From the UHGV virus genome UHGV-0120185: DNA of 18,367 bases; one strand, 5' to 3'. The first letter of the stretch is position 1; every line of letters starts with the position of its first letter. Source of the DNA: a virus. Under the pieces are notes generated by a model. The model worked only from the letters and a program-made list of their open reading frames with translations. It did not search any database and was not told where the DNA came from. Shown piece after piece: positions 4,992 through 13,186 of this stretch. The translations under genes and the position numbers were made by a program.

Positions 4992-6743
4992 ATGATTCAG
5001 GACGCTTTTGTGCGCCAGCGTGCGCGGCAACTTTACTGGCAGGGTTATCCGCCCGCAGAAATATCACGTCTGATGGGAATAAACCCGAACACGATTTATG
5101 CGTGGAAAAAACGCGACCAGTGGGATGAAACGCCACCCGTGCAGCGTGTCACGCAGTCCATCGATGCGCGCCTCATCCAGCTTACTGAAAAACAGAATAA
5201 AACAGGCGGTGACTTTAAGGAAATAGACCTGCTGACCCGGCAGCTTAAAAAGCTGCATGATGGCCAGCCGGATGTGACGGCCGCAGGAAAGAAAGGCCGG
5301 GCGAAAAAACTCAAAAATCATTTCACGCCGGAACAGATTGCCGCACTGCGGGAAAAAATCATCAGCAGGCTGGAGTGGCATCAGCGGGGCTGGTTTGACA
5401 CCCTGACCCTTTGCAGGGAAGCCGGGATACGTAACAGGATGATCCTGAAATCCCGACAGATTGGGGCGACCTGGTATTTTGCACAGGAAGCTCTGCTGAT
5501 GGCGCTGCGTGACGATGTGGCGCAACCTTACCAGCGTAACCAGATTTTTTTGTCTGCGTCGCGTCGTCAGGCGTTCCAGTTTAAAAGCATTATTCAGAAG
5601 GCCGCGGCTGAAGTTGATGTGGAGCTGAAAGGGGGCGATAAAATCATCCTCTCCAACGGCGCAGAGCTGCATTTTCTCGGCACTTCTGCTGCGTCGGCAC
5701 AGTCCTATACGGGCAATTTTTATTTTGATGAATTTTTCTGGGTCAGTCGCTTTGCTGAACTGCGCAAGGTGGCTGGCGCTATGGCAACCCTCAGCGGACT
5801 GCGGCGCACCTACTTTTCCACGCCATCCACCGAAACGCACGAGGCATACGCCTACTGGAACGGCGACCGCTGGAACGAGAAAAAGGCCTCGCATAAACGC
5901 CAGCGTTTTTCTGTGGACTGGAAAACGCTGCATAACGGGCTTATCTGCCCTGACCGGACGTGGCGGCAAATTGTCACGCTGGAAGATGTGGTTAATCACG
6001 GCTGGAAACACACCGATATCGACGAAATTCGTGATGAAAACACCGAAGATGAGTTCCTCAATCTCTATATGTGTGAGTTTGTCCGCGAAGGGGAATCGGC
6101 ATTTAACCTGAATATCCTGATTGGCTGCGGTGTTGACGGATACGACGACTGGAAAGACTGGAAACCTTTTGCTCCCCGCCCGATGGGGAATCGTCCGGTA
6201 TGGATTGGGTATGACGCAAACGGCAGCAGTGGAAACGGCGACAGCGGCGCTGTGTCCGTGGTGGTTCCTCCGGCTGTTCCTGGAGGCCGTTTTCGAACGG
6301 TGGAGACGCGACGCGTTCAGGGGCTGGAGTTTGAAGAACAGGCCAGAGTCATTGAAGAGTTCACGTGTCGCTACAACGTGGAACACATCGGCATTGATGT
6401 GACAGGCGGGAACGGGGAGGCTGTTTATCAGATAGTGAAACGGTTTTTCCCTGCTGCTATTCCGTACACCTTCACGCTGTCATCAAAACGGTCGCTGGTA
6501 CTGAAAATGCTGCAAATAATGCGTGCCGGGCGGTGGGAATACGATCGCGCCGAACGCGAGCTGGTCGCAGCCTTTAACGCCGTGCGTAAGGTGAAAACAC
6601 CGGGCGGCTTTATCACTTACGAAACGGACCGCGCGAGGGGGATCAGCCACGGCGACCTTGCGTGGGCAACCATGCTTGCTGTCATTAACGAACCAATTGG
6701 CGGCGAAGGAGAAAACGAGCGTTTCACGGTTATGGAGTTCTGA
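4992..6743 (+). CDS. P: P2 gpP-like terminase ATPase (large) subunit
   Basis: 583 aa, divergent from O as in P2. RBS GGGGGAG before ATG. Terminase-like nuclease region 'WIGYDANGSSGNGDSGAVSVV'. Confidence 0.9.
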   Translation: MIQDAFVRQRARQLYWQGYPPAEISRLMGINPNTIYAWKKRDQWDETPPVQRVTQSIDARLIQLTEKQNKTGGDFKEIDLLTRQLKKLHDGQPDVTAAGKKGRAKKLKNHFTPEQIAALREKIISRLEWHQRGWFDTLTLCREAGIRNRMILKSRQIGATWYFAQEALLMALRDDVAQPYQRNQIFLSASRRQAFQFKSIIQKAAAEVDVELKGGDKIILSNGAELHFLGTSAASAQSYTGNFYFDEFFWVSRFAELRKVAGAMATLSGLRRTYFSTPSTETHEAYAYWNGDRWNEKKASHKRQRFSVDWKTLHNGLICPDRTWRQIVTLEDVVNHGWKHTDIDEIRDENTEDEFLNLYMCEFVREGESAFNLNILIGCGVDGYDDWKDWKPFAPRPMGNRPVWIGYDANGSSGNGDSGAVSVVVPPAVPGGRFRTVETRRVQGLEFEEQARVIEEFTCRYNVEHIGIDVTGGNGEAVYQIVKRFFPAAIPYTFTLSSKRSLVLKMLQIMRAGRWEYDRAERELVAAFNAVRKVKTPGGFITYETDRARGISHGDLAWATMLAVINEPIGGEGENERFTVMEF

Positions 6744-7789
6744 TGAGCAGAAAAAATAAAAAAGTGCGCATGAGTTCACGCATTGATCTCGCTGATGCGC
6801 TCAGGAAAGAATCATCGCTCAGTGCATTCACATTTGATGGTCCTTATCGCCTGACCGGGCATGACCTGCTGGACAATATGTACTGTGCTGATAACGGGCG
6901 GTGGTATGAAACACCGGTGGACTGGTACGGTCTGGCAAGAGCTGCCCGGCAAACGTCCTGGCATCAGTCTGCGCTTTACTTTAAGCGCAATGTATTACTC
7001 GGTTGCTACATCCCGCACCCGCTGCTTTCCCGGCAGGATTTCTCGGCGCTGGCGCTGGACTGGTTTGTGTTCGGTAACGCATTCCTTGAGCTTCGAAGCA
7101 ATATGCTCGGCGAACCGCTTAAATTACGGCACGCCCTGGCGAAATACATGCGACGCGGAAGCGATCTTGAATCATGGTGGTATGTGCAGGATGGTAAGGA
7201 TGCGTTTCAGTTTCGCCCAGGCAAAGTGTGCCACCTGATGAATCCTGACATTAACCAGGAAATCTACGGCATGCCGGAATATCTTGGCGCATTACTCTCG
7301 GCCAGCCTGTCTCATTCGGCGGACATGTTCAGAAAACTGTATTACGACAACGGATCCCATGCCGGGTGCATCATCTACATCGGTGCAGCGCAGGTAAACC
7401 GCGAAAGCATGGACTCCCTGAAAGAAACGTTACAGGGTGCGCGTGGTGGCGGTGCGTTTAAAAACGTGCTCATTCATGCGCCCAACGGGGGCAAAGAGGG
7501 GGTGCAAATTTTGCCGTTCCAGCAGATCACCGCAAAGGATGAGTTCATGAATGTTAAGGCGGCATCCCGTGATGATGTGCTGGCTGCGCACCGCGTTCCG
7601 CCGCAACTGATGGGGGCGATGCCGGGCGAAAAAAGTGCGTTTGGTGATGTGGAGAAGGCCGCGCGGGTTTACGCAATTAACGAACTGATGCCCGTCATGG
7701 AGGCCATGAAGCACATCAATGACTGGCTTGGCGAAAAGGTGATCCGCTTTAACCCTTACGCACTGTTAGACACCCAGCCCACATCCTGA
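6743..7789 (+). CDS. Q: P2 gpQ-like portal protein
   Basis: 348 aa immediately after P with overlapping TGATG junction. Size and position match P2 Q, reading toward cos. Confidence 0.85.
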   Translation: MSRKNKKVRMSSRIDLADALRKESSLSAFTFDGPYRLTGHDLLDNMYCADNGRWYETPVDWYGLARAARQTSWHQSALYFKRNVLLGCYIPHPLLSRQDFSALALDWFVFGNAFLELRSNMLGEPLKLRHALAKYMRRGSDLESWWYVQDGKDAFQFRPGKVCHLMNPDINQEIYGMPEYLGALLSASLSHSADMFRKLYYDNGSHAGCIIYIGAAQVNRESMDSLKETLQGARGGGAFKNVLIHAPNGGKEGVQILPFQQITAKDEFMNVKAASRDDVLAAHRVPPQLMGAMPGEKSAFGDVEKAARVYAINELMPVMEAMKHINDWLGEKVIRFNPYALLDTQPTS

Positions 7790-7814
7790 CGCGCTTCGCT
7801 TGTCTGCTGCTTCG

Positions 7815-7841
7815 CCGGGGCATAAAAAATTTATGCCCCGG
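7815..7841 (+). terminator. perfect 12-bp-stem hairpin downstream of Q (CCGGGGCATAAA-aaa-TTTATGCCCCGG)
   Basis: Perfect inverted repeat read directly from sequence, 26 nt after the Q stop. No clear U-tract, so function as terminator is inferred. Confidence 0.4.
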
Positions 7842-8213
7842 CTCTCCAGCTCCTGTATCAATCAGATAATTTCACGACGCTTTCCTGCTGATTGCCATCA
7901 TCGACAGTCAGACTCTTACGCAATCCCACCGCGTTGACTGCATGTTCTCGCCGTCTCAGTGCGATTTTGACGGCCTTACCTTTCACCCCATCAAATCAAA
8001 AGCCCTCACGTCTTTTTCACGCTCAGCGTGAGAAATACAGCCATTCTGTTGTATCTCTGCGACATCGTTCAGGGAATGCTATTTACCCCCTGAAACGCGG
8101 GCTGTTCCCCCGTCACCTGCGCGCAGAAAAAACGCGTTTTTTTGTGCACGCACGGATCCCTGACGGATCCAGCCGCCACGCGGGCCGGAAGGGCAAAAAG
8201 TCGTTCAAAAAAA

Positions 8214-8240
8214 TTGTGCAAATTTGTGCACTATTGTGCA
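8214..8240. repeat. three direct TTGTGCA repeats phased at exactly 10 bp
   Basis: TTGTGCA at 8214-8220, 8224-8230 and 8234-8240, read directly. Confidence 0.55.
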
Positions 8241-8250
8241 TTGAAATAAA

Positions 8251-8271
8251 CGCCCTGGAAGAGGGCGTTTT
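8251..8271 (-). terminator. rho-independent-like terminator for the minus-strand accessory operon (possibly bidirectional)
   Basis: Hairpin CGCCCT-ggaag-AGGGCG 14 nt after the stop of the 112-aa gene, with T-rich tracts on both sides. Confidence 0.5.
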
Positions 8272-8280
8272 GGCTCATTT

Positions 8281-8619
8281 CTATAGCTTTGATGCAGGCT
8301 GGGCTAGGTCTCCTTTGATGCCAGTGTTTACAACCTGACAAGCCTCTTTGAGTACCCAGTCAACAGCGTCTTTCCATGCTCCGGTTTCGGCTGGCGGATT
8401 CTCACGCTTTACCAGTTCATAGAATCGTACTGCTCTAACCAGTCCATCTGACGGTTTTGCCTGTAGTGCAGCCTGAGCTATGCGGTATGCCTGGAGCATA
8501 CGGGCGTCGTTGATATCCATTCCGAACGGAATTTCTGATGATTGTGATTCTGCATCTTCAAGCCTGGCAATTTCTTTACGTAAAAAGTATTTCAACTCTT
8601 GTTTTTGTTTTCTGTTCAT
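8281..8619 (-). CDS. hypothetical protein (112 aa), partner of the ClpX-zinc-ribbon-like protein
   Basis: ATG overlaps the upstream gene's stop (ATGA), followed by the terminator. No family recognised. Confidence 0.55.
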
Positions 8620-8948
8620 GCGTTTTTTCCCTTTTTGTCTGTCACTTCTCTCCTGATAATTTCATTGCACAAATCCACGCACTCATTGCAGATGCAAACA
8701 GACGGTCCGGCAATCACCTTTGTGACTTCGTACTGAGATTTATTGCAGAAGCTGCAATAAATCGTCTCCTCGCCTGAAGTCCATGTTTTGCTGGTTTCGC
8801 CAGACATCAGTTGTTTGAGGTCTTTTTCACGACGAAGAACTATCTGGCCACATTCAGCTATTTTTTGGATGTTGACATTTTCTTCTTTCGCCAGCGCTTC
8901 CATCCGCTCAATCAGTCGCTGCGCTTTTTCTCTGTCAATGTGTTGCAT
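8616..8948 (-). CDS. small protein with C-terminal ClpX N-terminal-type C4 zinc-ribbon domain
   Basis: C-terminal '[39 protein letters not shown]' versus ClpX N-domain '[39 protein letters not shown]' as recalled (about 30/40 identical, all four Zn-ligand Cys kept). N-terminal ~60 aa unrelated and helical. RBS AAGGGGG before ATG at 8948. Confidence 0.75.
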
Positions 8949-8982
8949 TGTGTCCCCCTTGTTTATGTTCCCGGATTAAAGT

Positions 8983-9006
8983 CATCAGGGCGGATGCGCC
9001 CTGATG
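8983..9006. promoter_or_regulatory. perfect 10-bp-stem hairpin (CATCAGGGCG-gatg-CGCCCTGATG) between parR and the zinc-ribbon gene
   Basis: Read directly. The arm CGCCCTGAT recurs at 9026-9034 inside the parR 3' end. No U-tract on the coding strand. Confidence 0.35.
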
Positions 9007-9011
9007 TTGTG

Positions 9012-9323
9012 TTATTCGGGAAATAACGCCCTGATATTTCCGGCCATCCGACTGGTTATCTGTGAGGTTGGTACTGGCTGTGACGCGGGGCGTTCTGTCC
9101 TGGTTTGTGTCACTGATAACGCCTCATCGTCAGCCCATGCAGCCAGTCGGTAAGCCTCTGCCGGATTCATTTTCAGAAGTGCCAGCCCGGCCAGAAAAGC
9201 CACACGTTGGCCGCTTTTGCGGGCTTCTGGTGTAAGGCTGTCCAGCCAGGTGCATGCTTCGCCTTCGTTCTTGACGGCGGCGGGCTTCAGATAGAAACTT
9301 ATCCGTCTGGTTGGTGTCGTCAT
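9012..9323 (-). CDS. parR: ParR-like centromere-binding protein (type II partition)
   Basis: 103 aa from internal Met 4 nt after the parM stop, RBS AAGGAG. 'RRISFYLKP...LDSL...RVAFLAGLALLKMNP...NIRALFPE' parallels plasmid R1 ParR as recalled. Confidence 0.7.
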   Translation of the reverse strand: MTTPTRRISFYLKPAAVKNEGEACTWLDSLTPEARKSGQRVAFLAGLALLKMNPAEAYRLAAWADDEALSVTQTRTERPASQPVPTSQITSRMAGNIRALFPE

Positions 9324-9327
9324 TGGT

Positions 9328-10287
9328 TTACTCCTTGTCCATTGCGTACAGCCCATTAACCAGAGCAAACTGTGGCACCCCGTCCGCGATGAAAGTCGCA
9401 TTAACTCCGCAGGCTTCGCGGATAGCGGGTGCCACAATCTCCGCCCCGCCACCGACAACCATCACCCGCCCGTAACCCGAAAAACCCGCCAGCGCGCGGA
9501 TCACTCGTTGTTTCAGTGTTTCTTCCTTTTCACGAATAACCGCCATCAGGCTGTCGTAATGCGCGTCATTGTGGATGTGCTGGCGCAGCCAGGCTTCATC
9601 ATGGCGATGTTCGATAATGGTATTGGCGATGTGGTGACTGGTGCGCATACCGTTAGTGGCCATCACCGACAGTACGGCATCGGCCATCAGAGAAACGCCT
9701 ACGTGTGGATCGCAAAACACCTGGCTGATACCTGCCAGTTGCCCCTGAACCTTTGCCACATCCAGCGTGGTTCCGCCCAAATCCACAATCAGCAGGGATT
9801 CAAACGGACTCATGTCAGCCAGTGCCTTAAAGCCAGCCGGAATGGATTCAGGCATAACCCGCACGTTACGGATAGTGAATGCTTCGCCGTTCTGGTACTC
9901 CACCGGGCGCATAACGTTCGCTTTTTTGCGGTTGATGTTGGCCATGTCCGGCTGTGCGTTTGTGTCGAAATACTCGCTCAGTGGCAGGGTGACAACCACA
10001 TCCACCTCCTGTGGCGTGATGCCTGATTTGACCAGCGCGTGATGAATGGCAATTACATTCACATCGCTGTACTGGTATTGCGTGTCGGTCGTCTGGACAA
10101 ATCGATCGCTGACCGGATCAAAACCATAGCGCACGCCATCAAGCATGTAGTTTGCGGGCTGCATGCCACCGAACGGCGCAGACCATTCCGATTTGAAGCT
10201 GTTCGGGCTGATGGCGTTGCGGCGTTCGCCGTTCTCAGTCCATGCCAGCTTGATGTTGGTGGAGCCGTCGTCGATACAAATTTTCAT
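9328..10287 (-). CDS. parM: ParM-like actin-type partition ATPase
   Basis: 'MKICIDDGSTNIKLAW', 'YQYSDVNVIAIHHAL', 'RKKANV', 'VMPESIPAGF', 'LLIVDLGGTTLDV', 'VMVVGGGAE', 'ALVNGLY' are collinear with plasmid R1 ParM/StbA as recalled. RBS AAGGA before ATG. Confidence 0.9.
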   Translation of the reverse strand: MKICIDDGSTNIKLAWTENGERRNAISPNSFKSEWSAPFGGMQPANYMLDGVRYGFDPVSDRFVQTTDTQYQYSDVNVIAIHHALVKSGITPQEVDVVVTLPLSEYFDTNAQPDMANINRKKANVMRPVEYQNGEAFTIRNVRVMPESIPAGFKALADMSPFESLLIVDLGGTTLDVAKVQGQLAGISQVFCDPHVGVSLMADAVLSVMATNGMRTSHHIANTIIEHRHDEAWLRQHIHNDAHYDSLMAVIREKEETLKQRVIRALAGFSGYGRVMVVGGGAEIVAPAIREACGVNATFIADGVPQFALVNGLYAMDKE

Positions 10288-10316
10288 GTCGATTTTCCTT
10301 ATGTTGATTAATTAAT

Positions 10317-10429
10317 CGTTTACGGGGTTTTTAAATCCCGTTTTTGCCTGTTTTATGCGCGCTTCATATATCGCGGCGCGTTTTTTGCTCATTTACGGGT
10401 TTTGTGAATCCCGTTTCTGTCTGTTTTTT
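10317..10429. repeat. two ~38-bp direct repeats 73 bp apart, candidate parC-like centromere/operator
   Basis: Copy 1 at 10317-10354 (cgtttacggggtttttaaatcccgtttttgcctgtttt), copy 2 at 10390-10429 (catttacgggttttgtgaatcccgtttctgtctgtttttt), ~85% identical. Each holds an ACGGG...CCCGT hairpin. Copy 1 is in the A-parM gap, copy 2 inside the last codons of A. Confidence 0.5.
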
Positions 10430-13186
10430 GTTTCCACTGGTCAGGCTACCCCGCAGCAGGTCTGCTTTGCGGCGGGCGCGTTCAGTGGTTTCACTGATTC
10501 TCTGTGCGTGCTCTGCGTCACGGATGGCGCGCAGCATGTCAGAAAGCACGGTAACGGGGGTTTTCATGGTGTTCTGGTCCTGCTGAAGTGTGGATGCCAG
10601 GCGTGCGGCGGCTTCGGGGTCTGATGCCCCCAGCTGTTCCAGATAGCCGGCGACCGGGTTATGGCGGATCTCCGTGCTGCTTACGCCGTGATTACGGCTC
10701 AGGCGCTGCCAGAGCTGCGTGATTCGGCTGTCCGGGCGGGTATCCGGTTTGCGTACAATTTCAAATCCCTGCGGTGCAATGATGCTGCCGTCAACGTACA
10801 GGCTGCCGCCCCGTAACAGGTGCTGCATCTGCTGTTCACCGATATGCAGGCCGAGAGATTCGGCAGACTCCCGCCATTCTTTAGCGAGTAATTCGTGGTT
10901 ATCAGGCAAAGGCCGCTGCTGTTTGCGGCTCTGTGTCCAGCTCTGCATTTCATCACTGCTGTTTTTTGCCTGTTTATCATGAAGCGAACGCATCAGCGCC
11001 CGGCGTTCGTGCCGTTTCAGTGAGCGCATCCATTCGTTCACTTCAACGCCATCAGGGAGCTGCGGCCACGGTGCTGGCCGTTCTTCCGGCTGTTCTGCCC
11101 CGTTGTTGTTCGTTTCCTGTACACGGGGACAGTTATTGCCACGAGTCCAAGGGGCGGCAGGGCCGCCCTGAAGGTCAAAACCATTTTCGCGGGCGCTGTC
11201 TTCCGCTTCCGGTTTACGTCTTACCAGCTTCCAGTTATCCGGATGCGTGCACACACGGGAGGATTCCCCGATGAGTGGTGACCAGATCCCGTAAATCTGT
11301 ACGCTCTGTTCGCCGTAATCGTTCAGCTCATCTGCGAGGTCGTAGGCGGTGCGAATCAGGTAGTCCTTGCGCGGAACAAGTACGCCACCCTGTTTTTCAA
11401 TGTAGGTGGCAAAACACCCGGCATCAGCGGCAGCAAGAACCGCATCCATTGCGTCATCCTTCAGCCGTTGCGGGCCTTCCGGGCTGCGTGCCATCTGGCT
11501 GGCAAGGCGGCGGAGTTCACGCCACACCTGACGGGAGGGAATGCCAAAGAACTGGAACTGGCGGACCCGGTGAAGGCGCGCCCAGCCGATGGCGCGTTCC
11601 ACGCTCTCGGCCATTGATTTTCCGGTTTCGTGGTCAACGCGTGGTTTGCCTGTTTTCGGGTCGATGCCATCCACGGCCCGGCTGTCCAGGTTTTTTCCGA
11701 TGTAGGTCGCGATATAGCTGGTTGGTGTGCCTTTTGAGCCGTCGACATACTCCGCCTTAAAGCGCGGAGTAATATCATTGCCCAGCTCGTGGCGGTCTTC
11801 CTGAATGGCAATATCGCGGGTGATGGCCACGATGCTGTCGATTTCTTCCGGATGAGCAAAGACCATCATATGCCAGTGCACGGTGCCGTCATGGTGAGGC
11901 TCCACCGTGCGGATGCCATACCAGCGAAGACCGTCGCGGTTCAGTTTTTTGCGGACCGCCGCAAAAAACGTGTTAACCAGGTAATCGCTGGAGTCGCGCA
12001 TGGTGGCCCCGTTCCATCTGGGATTCGGATGACCGTTCTCCGTTGTGGCGTGGTATTTTGACGGGCAGGTGACAGTCAGAAACACCGCTTTGTCGCCACG
12101 GGCTTCAGCCAGAAGTTCCAGCCCCTTCATGGTGGCCATCATTTCTGCCTTACGGTGAACCGGGTTACTTACTCCCGCGTAATACACCGTCTCGAGATCA
12201 ATCGTGAACCCGTCTTCATTTTCCAGCATGAAACTTTTCAGGAAATCGCGTGTTTTCTCGCGCTGTGCGCGAAACTCGCTTAACGCGTCCTGGCTCAGAT
12301 AGGGCGATGTTTTTCTGGAAACCAGACAGGCGGCGCGGAGTTGTTCTTCTCTCCACTCGCAACGTAACAGCCACAGTTTGCGTTTCCACCATTCCGCACA
12401 GGTCAGGCGAAGGATTGCGCCCGGCAGCAGTTCTGTGTCCGGTTCGTGCCTCCGGTCTTTGTCTGTTGTCAGTGCGTCATAATGCGGAGGCATGGCGTGT
12501 AAGTGTAACGCCATGCGGGCCAGCATCTGATACGCCTTCAGCGTTACATCCATGGTCAGCTCGCCATCAGTCGCGCCAAAACCATCGCAGAGTTTTTCGA
12601 AGGTGCTGCTGAACATCGCCGCCGTCATGGTGGCCAGCGTCTGTATCTGGTGTTTGTTGAGTTGCGGCAGGTAAAGCAAATCGTCCAGGCGTTCACGTCC
12701 GGCAAGGGAGCGATAACCCGATGTCAGCCAGCGGTGATCGGTGCGCTCCAGACGTTCGAATATTTTGCGCAGGGTCCCACGCGCATAGCGTTCTGCCTGC
12801 CTGGCGTTTTTTCCTTTCTGACGATCGGCTTCCTGTTTTTTGCGCAGGAAGGAGAGGTGGCGAATAAGCGGATCGCGCAGATAGGACGGCAGCAGGCGCA
12901 GTGAGGCCATGGCCTCATCTACCGCGCCGCGTGCCTGTTTTCTGGCGTCTCCTGCCAGTGTGATTGTTTTGTCCTGTTTTTCCTGTGCGTCCAGGCTTTT
13001 ATTAATCAGGTTGCCCAGCGGCGTGGCGGAGAACGCCGCATCAGCCATTTCCTGGCGGCGCTCGTTCTCTGCCCGGTAGGCATCCAGCCAGGAGGAAAGC
13101 GCGGATTCAGGAGCGGGGATCCCCGTTCCTTCACGCCCCACTGCGTGGCGCGGTTGTTGCCAGTCCCTGATGTACTCTGCCGTCAT
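10364..13186 (-). CDS. A: P2 gpA-like rolling-circle replication initiator (HUH endonuclease)
   Basis: HUH motif 'VHWHMMVF' and twin-tyrosine motif 'SYIATYIGK'. 940 aa, position between early genes and the accessory locus as in P2. Confidence 0.85.
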   Translation of the reverse strand: MTAEYIRDWQQPRHAVGREGTGIPAPESALSSWLDAYRAENERRQEMADAAFSATPLGNLINKSLDAQEKQDKTITLAGDARKQARGAVDEAMASLRLLPSYLRDPLIRHLSFLRKKQEADRQKGKNARQAERYARGTLRKIFERLERTDHRWLTSGYRSLAGRERLDDLLYLPQLNKHQIQTLATMTAAMFSSTFEKLCDGFGATDGELTMDVTLKAYQMLARMALHLHAMPPHYDALTTDKDRRHEPDTELLPGAILRLTCAEWWKRKLWLLRCEWREEQLRAACLVSRKTSPYLSQDALSEFRAQREKTRDFLKSFMLENEDGFTIDLETVYYAGVSNPVHRKAEMMATMKGLELLAEARGDKAVFLTVTCPSKYHATTENGHPNPRWNGATMRDSSDYLVNTFFAAVRKKLNRDGLRWYGIRTVEPHHDGTVHWHMMVFAHPEEIDSIVAITRDIAIQEDRHELGNDITPRFKAEYVDGSKGTPTSYIATYIGKNLDSRAVDGIDPKTGKPRVDHETGKSMAESVERAIGWARLHRVRQFQFFGIPSRQVWRELRRLASQMARSPEGPQRLKDDAMDAVLAAADAGCFATYIEKQGGVLVPRKDYLIRTAYDLADELNDYGEQSVQIYGIWSPLIGESSRVCTHPDNWKLVRRKPEAEDSARENGFDLQGGPAAPWTRGNNCPRVQETNNNGAEQPEERPAPWPQLPDGVEVNEWMRSLKRHERRALMRSLHDKQAKNSSDEMQSWTQSRKQQRPLPDNHELLAKEWRESAESLGLHIGEQQMQHLLRGGSLYVDGSIIAPQGFEIVRKPDTRPDSRITQLWQRLSRNHGVSSTEIRHNPVAGYLEQLGASDPEAAARLASTLQQDQNTMKTPVTVLSDMLRAIRDAEHAQRISETTERARRKADLLRGSLTSGNKKQTETGFTKPVNEQKTRRDI

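Follow-up and report, generated by a model that had tools for sequence, protein, structure and literature searches.

The stretch of viral DNA analyzed here, 18,367 nucleotides of the genome UHGV-0120185 (the window), stems from a P2-like temperate phage and carries on its minus strand, at positions 8281-8948, two small overlapping genes for proteins of 110 and 112 amino acids. The first of these proteins joins a helical hairpin to a zinc-binding domain (ZBD) of the type found at the N-terminus of the host unfoldase ClpX, and we propose that it is a single-gene accessory function of temperate enterobacterial phages and acts as a decoy that competes with ClpX for the ligands of its N-domain. To this reading, which emerges from computational analysis, we assign a probability of about 0.45. 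A sequence-only reading of the window had recognized the ClpX-like domain and had interpreted the gene pair as one superinfection-exclusion or counter-defense module in the place of old and tin of phage P2; its view of the domain is borne out by the evidence presented below, its view of the pair is not.

Domain architecture and fold of the 110-residue protein

The gene for the 110-residue protein (8616-8948, minus strand) corresponds to gp19 of Escherichia phage P88, and its ZBD, recovered by Pfam, phmmer and Foldseek, is encoded by codons 63-108 (8625-8762, minus strand). The Pfam family zf-C4_ClpX (PF06689) matches residues 64-99 with an E-value of 2.9e-16 and 59.5 bits against a cut-off of 27, covering 37 of the 39 profile positions, and the best sequence matches in the PDB, obtained with phmmer at E ~1e-18, are the E. 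coli ClpX N-domain structures 1ovx and 2ds5. The zinc-ligand cysteines C65, C68, C87 and C90 (CxxC ... CxxC) are invariant in an alignment of 29 sequences. In an AlphaFold2 (AF2) model with a mean predicted local distance difference test score (pLDDT) of 75.8, helices at residues 6-23 and 27-48 are followed by a low-confidence linker at about residues 49-62 and by the ZBD, the C-terminal helix of which spans residues 88-108. When this model was compared with known structures by Foldseek, its ZBD superimposed on 2ds5, 2ds6, 2ds7 and 2ds8 with a root mean square deviation of 0.6-0.8 Å over 38-40 residues and target template modelling (TM) scores of 0.86-0.91, and it adopts the treble-clef fold of the ClpX structures. 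The resemblance to the ClpX zinc ribbon, including all four cysteines, is therefore far beyond chance. The unrelated helical N-terminus that had been noticed in front of it likewise reappears as a predicted two-helix hairpin, delimited by the AF2 model and by family comparison to codons 1-48 (8805-8948, minus strand); the connecting linker (codons 49-62; 8763-8804, minus strand) has pLDDT values below 50 at residues 53-59 and is probably flexible. A search with the hairpin as the sole query retrieved truncated copies of the same gene only and no other architecture.

Over its whole length the protein matches PHROG 6797, a family without assigned function (E=1.1e-57, residues 1-106 on profile positions 5-107 of 107), and in RefSeq it bears the name 'ClpX C4-type zinc finger protein'. 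The gene has thus already been annotated and catalogued, and the domain call as such is routine. The protein is not a ClpX unfoldase: the NCBIfam ClpX model (TIGR00382 / PRK05342) scored 48.5 bits against a cut-off of 370.75 with model positions 6-52 alone matched, and with no full-length match, no AAA+ module and a length of just 110 residues it is a ZBD-only protein. The label 'carboxylate--amine ligase', which is attached to it in the P88 record (NC_026014 / KP063541 gp19) and in many NCBI entries (e.g., P0001, P0003 and P0004), is a wrong name for a ClpX-type ZBD protein. The allele in the window has a fifth cysteine, Cys85 (PSVCICNEC; 8694-8696), two residues before the zinc ligand C87; other members of the family carry Tyr, Trp or Phe at this position, and identical alleles are present in several E. 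coli genomes.

Conservation of the domain and of its docking patch

The ZBD core shares 79% protein identity and 66% DNA identity with residues 14-51 of E. coli ClpX. This closeness is a property of the whole family, since in all full-length members the 38-residue core retains 71-89% identity to E. coli ClpX, while the N-terminal halves drift apart to 27-42% identity in distant members. The cores of distant members are as near to ClpX as they are to one another. At the DNA level, the family cores are identical to K-12 clpX at only 0.64-0.77 of positions, which rules out a recent capture from the host gene. Because DNA identity is this low while the protein core stays at 71-89%, the comparison indicates that the ZBD is an old acquisition, the likeness of which to ClpX is kept up by selection at the protein level. 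Both genes of the pair are under purifying selection, with ratios of nonsynonymous to synonymous substitution rates (dN/dS) of 0.15-0.5 in most comparisons.

In ClpX, a patch formed by F16 and I46 binds lambda O, trigger factor, SspB and RssB (PMC7804408). The equivalent residues of the 110-residue protein, F67 and I97, are conserved, I97 in at least 90% of the sequences, and the equivalent of ClpX L13 is I63, a position occupied by isoleucine or leucine across the family.

A predicted competitor for ligands of the ClpX N-domain

Lambda O, MuA, UmuD', FtsZ and MqsA dock on the N-domain of ClpX, as do the adaptors SspB and RssB. A free ClpX ZBD provided in trans inhibits the RssB-mediated breakdown of sigma-S through wild-type ClpXP in vitro (PMC7226468), and the suggestion made from the sequence that a free copy could titrate or redirect ClpXP fits these data. 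Given that a ClpX-like ZBD is kept under selection, the protein is most simply understood as a competitor for N-domain ligands. According to the mechanism that we propose, an old copy of a host domain, held near the host sequence by selection and tethered via a flexible linker to a family-specific hairpin, would probably be expressed at the end of the early A(-parMR) operon. It would dimerize through the ZBD, as the ClpX domain does, and present the hydrophobic patch that in ClpX forms the docking surface for N-domain-dependent substrates and adaptors. The ligands competed for would be lambda O, MuA, UmuD', FtsZ, MqsA, SspB, RssB and trigger factor; as an alternative to competition, mixed dimers between the protein and ClpX N-domains might arise. 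In either case, the predicted outcome is a selective dampening or redirection of ClpXP proteolysis, by which, for example, labile antitoxins, sigma-S or phage and plasmid proteins could be stabilized. The hairpin would serve oligomerization or a second, specific partner, and the 112-residue protein would be the product of a separate accessory gene from the 'ea-type' prophage pool. As to the beneficiaries, labile antitoxins, sigma-S, UmuD'/HumD and phage replication proteins come to mind, but this is speculation.

A more ambitious version of the proposal, which we put forward tentatively and consider rather less than an even bet, sees the protein as a dedicated viral mimic of the ClpX N-domain that reprograms the substrate choice of ClpXP in phages and phage-plasmids, either as an anti-adaptor or decoy or, by way of mixed ZBD dimers, as a poison subunit. 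If this were true, possible effects would include a block of ClpXP-dependent antitoxin decay and thus an escape from abortive infection, the stabilization of sigma-S or of phage and plasmid proteins, and the exclusion of ClpX-dependent Mu-like phages. The statement in the sequence-only reading that Mu and lambda both depend on ClpX is correct for Mu, which needs ClpX, and inexact for lambda, the O protein of which is degraded by ClpXP.

Several points weigh against the protein being a competitor for N-domain ligands. ClpX residues L12 and H23, which are required for binding of MqsA and the SspB tail (PMC8808172), are replaced by T62 and Y73, although some alleles do have histidine at the second position, and the ligand range may therefore differ from that of ClpX. 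Competition would require concentrations comparable to those of ClpX. It is uncertain whether a heterodimer could be formed with a ClpX ZBD dimer that is very stable. We know of no P2 function that depends on ClpX. Finally, matches to the ZBD alone amount to about 17,000 among representative proteins and occur in many architectures, so that a ZBD of this type need not imply ClpXP biology at all.

This last point leads to an explanation that we consider unlikely yet worth serious attention, namely that the ZBD is a generic zinc-ribbon scaffold for dimerization or protein binding, that the activity resides in the hairpin, which might bind a phage or host regulator, and that there is no link to ClpXP. 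ZBD-like domains indeed combine with many other domains and occur in tandem arrays and in ZBD proteins of 125-136 residues, the hairpin is conserved across the family and includes a recurrent ..C(A/S/G)xI(V/I)xRR.. motif, and L12 and H23 of ClpX are not conserved. On the other hand, a scaffold has no need to remain 71-89% identical to ClpX while the rest of the protein drifts to 27-42%, nor to keep the surface patch F67/I97. As regards free ZBD architectures themselves, they are widespread beyond phages; metagenomic proteins contain two to six ClpX-type ZBDs in tandem (e.g., P0187-P0191, P0200 and P0284), and the proteins of 125-136 residues consist of a ZBD followed by a C-terminal segment.

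Could the protein deliver substrates to ClpXP instead of withholding them? In such an adaptor, the ZBD would form a mixed dimer with the ClpX N-domain and the hairpin would recruit a specific target for destruction. Two domains joined by a flexible linker do resemble tethering adaptors, and high identity to ClpX over the whole ZBD core is compatible with heterodimerization. Nevertheless, mixed dimers found no support in this analysis, the search with the hairpin alone did not reveal a target, and Wojtyra and colleagues are said to have found in 2003 that the ClpX ZBD dimer is very stable. We therefore hold an adaptor function to be quite improbable.

Comparison with known systems underlines what would be special about the competitor that we propose. 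The ClpX N-domain (residues 1-60; PDB 1OVX, 2DS5-2DS8) shares the Pfam domain, the cysteine ligands, the fold and the F/I docking patch with the 110-residue protein. Unlike ClpX, the phage protein lacks the AAA+ module and can therefore neither unfold substrates nor deliver them to ClpP; its ZBD is C-terminal, behind the hairpin, whereas that of ClpX is N-terminal, and the equivalents of L12 and H23 differ. Phage modulators of host proteases include lambda RexB, which counteracts ClpP-dependent antitoxin decay, T4 PinA and T7 gp4.5, which act against Lon, lambda CIII, which acts against FtsH, and SPO1 gp53, an adaptor-like protein acting on ClpCP. All of these are small accessory phage proteins that change the targets of a host protease, as predicted for the 110-residue protein, and the uses to which such proteins are put, the protection of labile proteins and the countering of abortive infection based on toxin-antitoxin (TA) systems, may be common to both. 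None of them is related in sequence to the 110-residue protein, the function of which we infer, and none copies a domain of its protease. A similar logic, in which a free docking domain or binder diverts ligands from a full-length unfoldase, is followed by mycobacterial ClpC2, an N-domain-only homolog of ClpC1 that acts as a stand-alone decoy, and by the E. coli anti-adaptors IraP, IraM and IraD; these are cellular genes aimed at ClpC1 ligands or directly at RssB, whereas the 110-residue protein is viral and derived from ClpX. A functional description of a phage ZBD protein of this kind was not found in the literature.

Distribution and modularity of the ZBD gene

The ZBD gene is present in 112 of 5,426 complete E. 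coli genomes (about 2%), including UTI89 and ST131 strains, and in 86 of these 112 the region of the pair is present to at least 80%. Full-length relatives, which amount to some eight clusters (50% identity) in a set of 1.8 billion representatives, occur in P88-like phages, other P2-like phages, D6 and PhiR41_1. Their genetic environment was surveyed in 62 full-length loci from IMG/VR. In 42 of these, the arrangement is P88-like (A-ParM-ParR-ZBD), and the gene for the 112-residue protein or a 103/104-residue form of it lies downstream in 27. Four further P88-like loci contain only the N-terminal 67 codons of the 112-residue gene, joined to a different C-terminus, and the remainder have an unrelated 174-residue gene or a fragment downstream, or an ASCH/DUF3850-like gene resembling P2 orf91. 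The 174-residue gene does not encode a diverged homolog of the 112-residue protein (BLASTP E=8.5).

Outside the P88-like group the gene keeps other company. Seven of the 62 loci belong to divergent P2-like phages without ParMR, in which the ZBD gene is either solitary or followed by HicA/HicB-like genes, and thirteen are phage-plasmid contigs; solitary ZBD genes were seen, for instance, in loci L062 and L077. In Salmonella P2-like prophages, a homolog with 43% identity is the last gene after A, alongside a convergent gene, and is bracketed by strongly structured direct repeats of 71 nucleotides that are 97% identical and 499 nucleotides apart (L009, 4891-4961 and 5390-5460; also in L008), which suggests that it constitutes a discrete mobile single-gene cassette. 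Homologs that are 48-51% identical are found in the P1-like phage-plasmid D6 and in PhiR41_1/CMS-2020a elements of about 108 kb, where they sit within extended arrays made up of small accessory genes of 'ea-type' (Ead/Ea22-like, EaA, DUF4752, DUF4014). In these phage-plasmids, the Ea22-like neighbors of the ZBD gene lack the C-terminal module of the 112-residue protein. A role of the ZBD gene as a functional part of the ParMR module was discarded, as Salmonella prophages and other P2-like phages carry it without ParMR.

The ZBD gene is hence an independent, stand-alone module. The claim that both genes form one system does not hold up, since the ZBD gene occurs alone or with unrelated neighbors in Salmonella, in divergent P2-like phages and in phage-plasmids. 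A defense system of two genes would have in its favor that the pair is the most common arrangement in E. coli (86 of 112 ZBD-positive genomes) and in P88-like IMG/VR loci (27 of 42), and that the overlap of the two genes implies co-expression; the ZBD gene lacks this partner in many lineages, while hundreds of genomes carry the partner family but no ZBD gene, and both genes come from the 'ea-type' early accessory arrays of phage-plasmids. We return to this explanation when the position of the pair is considered.

Two small overlapping genes in a hotspot also call to mind a type II TA module. Gene size and overlap would fit, and TA modules (YafO; HicAB-like) adjoin ZBD genes in other arrangements. 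Searches of Pfam, NCBIfam and PADLOC, however, assigned neither protein to a TA family, and each gene is widespread without the other, which makes a TA module highly improbable. The TA-like genes that follow the ZBD gene elsewhere comprise a 197-residue gene plus a YafO toxin in a common E. coli variant (L013, 5094-6077) and HicA/HicB-like genes in divergent P2-like phages (L090/L091/L094, 4405-5042); their proximity may reflect mere co-residence in the hotspot but deserves mention given the role of ClpXP in antitoxin turnover.

The 112-residue partner

The second gene of the pair (8281-8619, minus strand; P88 gp20) encodes an all-helical protein which had been described as belonging to no recognizable family. 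In fact, it belongs, as a minimal member, to a mosaic family of prophage proteins that is very common: PHROGs 26213 and 660 match with E=2.6e-28 and 4.4e-28 over residues 37-104 and 57-104, respectively, PHROG 250 is also matched, and 591 homologs were found. No Pfam family at E<=1 and no NCBIfam model matched the protein, and neither a PDB sequence search nor a Foldseek search with the four-helix model (pLDDT 67) gave anything below E=0.6. The alignment of the family reveals an N-terminal helix, a PFG-xD motif, an ..ALxxLxAxP.. helix, a variable middle segment, which the 112-residue protein lacks, and a nearly invariant C-terminal module of 46 residues. In the 112-residue gene, codons 57-104 (8308-8451, minus strand) correspond to this module, which is common to Ead/Ea22-like and other prophage proteins and is joined to many different N-termini in mosaic proteins. 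Some module-bearing proteins additionally carry the Pfam domain Ead_Ea22 (PF13935); the 112-residue protein itself does not match PF13935 and has only the C-terminal module in common with such proteins. With Ead/Ea22-like proteins it thus shares the N-terminal layout, the near-identical C-terminal module and the occurrence in the same accessory arrays, but not the variable middle and the Ead_Ea22 region; module-bearing members have no known function.

The DNA of the module (8308-8451) has matches of about 85-93% identity in 754 of the 5,426 E. coli genomes, compared with 112 for the ZBD gene, and also matches assorted unrelated phages and plasmids of about 90 kb. It could therefore act as a recombination linker besides encoding a protein module. 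A 170-residue relative of the 112-residue protein resides in an accessory array of P1/D6 type, the type of array that elsewhere holds the ZBD gene, and the ZBD protein ends in DKKGKNA when the 112-residue gene follows and in DHEEKTHE when the 174-residue gene follows. From these comparisons, the pair is best read as two genes of one shared accessory pool that modular recombination brought together in the P88 lineage, with a junction inside the last ~8 codons of the ZBD gene. P0075, a protein of 191 residues from 143 contigs, joins ParM residues 1 to ~120 in frame to residues ~38-104 of the 112-residue protein, and represents a recurrent deletion derivative of the locus that lacks the ZBD gene, parR and the 3' half of parM.

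Gene order, expression and position in the P2 hotspot

Positions 7800-10400 of the window are 98.1% identical over their full length to Escherichia phage P88 (Xuanwuvirus, Peduoviridae). The order on the minus strand is integrase/repressor region, early genes, A, parM, parR/stbB, the 110-residue gene, the 112-residue gene, a hairpin terminator and a cos-proximal spacer. Replication gene A (10364-13186, minus strand), assigned by a profile match to Phage_GPA, marks the upstream end of the hotspot, and the annotated portal gene Q (6743-7789, plus strand), which converges on the pair, marks the other. The ParM gene (9328-10287) and the ParR/StbB-like gene (9012-9323) lie upstream of the pair in the same orientation, the latter directly adjacent to it. 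As claimed from the sequence, both reading frames of the pair exist and overlap in an ATGA at 8616-8619, where the stop codon of the first gene meets the start codon of the second, and an AAGGGGG of Shine-Dalgarno type 6 nucleotides upstream of the ATG (8948) of the 110-residue gene provides a ribosome-binding site of its own. With a GC content of 44-46%, compared with 52% for the window and 55-57% for A and parM, both genes look typical of accessory cargo.

The terminator, in contrast, cannot be credited to the cassette. Located 3' of the 112-residue gene (8240-8270, minus strand), it consists of a GC-rich hairpin (8248-8270) with the tail AUUUCAAU, and in a divergent P2-like phage the same hairpin stands immediately behind a ZBD gene that has no partner, where it is followed by the same GTGCAC-rich cos-proximal sequence; it therefore belongs to the phage backbone. 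The spacer of 63 nucleotides between parR and the ZBD gene (8949-9011, minus strand) holds, according to a sequence scan, the Shine-Dalgarno sequence and, at 8983-9006, a GC-rich hairpin of 10 bp, the U-tract of which on the coding strand is poor. A sigma-70 scan upstream of the pair, including this spacer, revealed no promoter-like site, and a search of 7700-10500 against Rfam gave no match. On the basis of this layout, the pair appears to form the end of the early (or parMR) transcript, from which we infer the time of its expression.

The region between A and Q next to cos is a recognized hotspot (Rousset et al. 2022, PMC9122126), and the pair indeed occupies the slot that holds old and tin in P2. 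The likeness ends with position. In P2, old and tin run opposite to A from their own promoter near cos and only orf91 runs with A, whereas the 110/112-residue pair runs in the same direction as A and parMR, and there is no homology between the two sets of genes. The pair is co-oriented with A and a promoter-like site was not detected; the sequence therefore does not make it evident that the genes are expressed in the lysogen, as superinfection exclusion would require. The equivalence to tin and old that had been assumed is thus confined to location.

The hotspot has previously been mined for defense systems, and loci of the composition 'StbA + Plasmid_stab_B + zf-C4_ClpX + hypothetical' are already included in Table S5 of Rousset et al. 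(2022), although there is no ClpX entry among the systems tested in that study (PMC9122126). The opinion that no system of this build had been described is consequently true insofar as PADLOC contains none and no functional description was found, and has to be corrected insofar as the locus type had been catalogued. In PADLOC-DB 2.0, no model matches the ZBD protein, and the 112-residue protein gives a non-significant hit to PDC-M28C (E=0.013).

It is in this setting that a translationally coupled, prophage-expressed pair acting as one new superinfection-exclusion or defense system equivalent to old and tin has to be judged. Residence in a validated P2 defense hotspot speaks for it, as does the general expectation that a block of MuA recognition by ClpX would exclude Mu-like phages. 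The orientation with A and the lack of a promoter-like site, unlike in old-tin, the lack of a significant PADLOC match for either protein and the separate lives of the two genes count against it. Moreover, cargo of the hotspot is not always defensive: of eight further P2 systems cloned by Rousset et al., three proved active (PMC9122126). Altogether, we regard such a two-gene system as improbable and prefer the ZBD protein as a single-gene competitor for ClpX N-domain ligands.

Some features of the neighborhood merit a record of their own. A complete ParM/ParR (StbA/StbB) partition module directly follows A (9012-10287) in this integrase-bearing P2-like phage; a partition system is present in about a quarter of P2-like phages (PMC9122126). 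A direct repeat of 42 nucleotides with 83% identity (10316-10357 and 10389-10430) extends across the 3' end of A and the A-parM spacer, each copy contains the hairpin ACGGGGTTTTTAAATCCCGT, and the repeat might represent a centromere (parC) or a promoter region. The 9-mer ATCAGGGCG occurs three times within 8984-9035, i.e., in the parR-ZBD spacer and the 3' end of parR, where two inverted copies form the spacer hairpin; with at most one mismatch, ATCAGGGCG has 12 matches in the window against 4.5 expected by chance. The product of gene A comprises 940 residues, of which the Phage_GPA domain accounts for residues 179-503 only, with a long C-terminal extension beyond it; gene A of P2 (NC_001895) is shorter (2286 nucleotides).

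Implications

Discovery of defense systems by position in a hotspot alone calls for some caution in the light of these results. Cargo between A and Q is not always lysogen-expressed defense; some of it goes along with the early operon and originates in the 'ea-type' pool of other temperate phages. For the ZBD protein, a role as competitor for ClpX N-domain ligands would add a further strategy, in which a domain of the protease is itself mimicked, to the few by which phages are known to modulate proteases, and would provide a natural, selective inhibitor of N-domain-dependent ClpXP proteolysis. In the more ambitious version of the proposal, it would be the first viral protein to inhibit an AAA+ protease by copying its substrate-docking domain. 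Because the gene resides in about 2% of complete E. coli genomes, among them UTI89 and ST131 strains, any effect in lysogens on the turnover of sigma-S, SOS/UmuD, FtsZ or antitoxins would bear on the physiology of clinical strains, and the ZBD mimic offers a clean, testable lead in well-studied strains.

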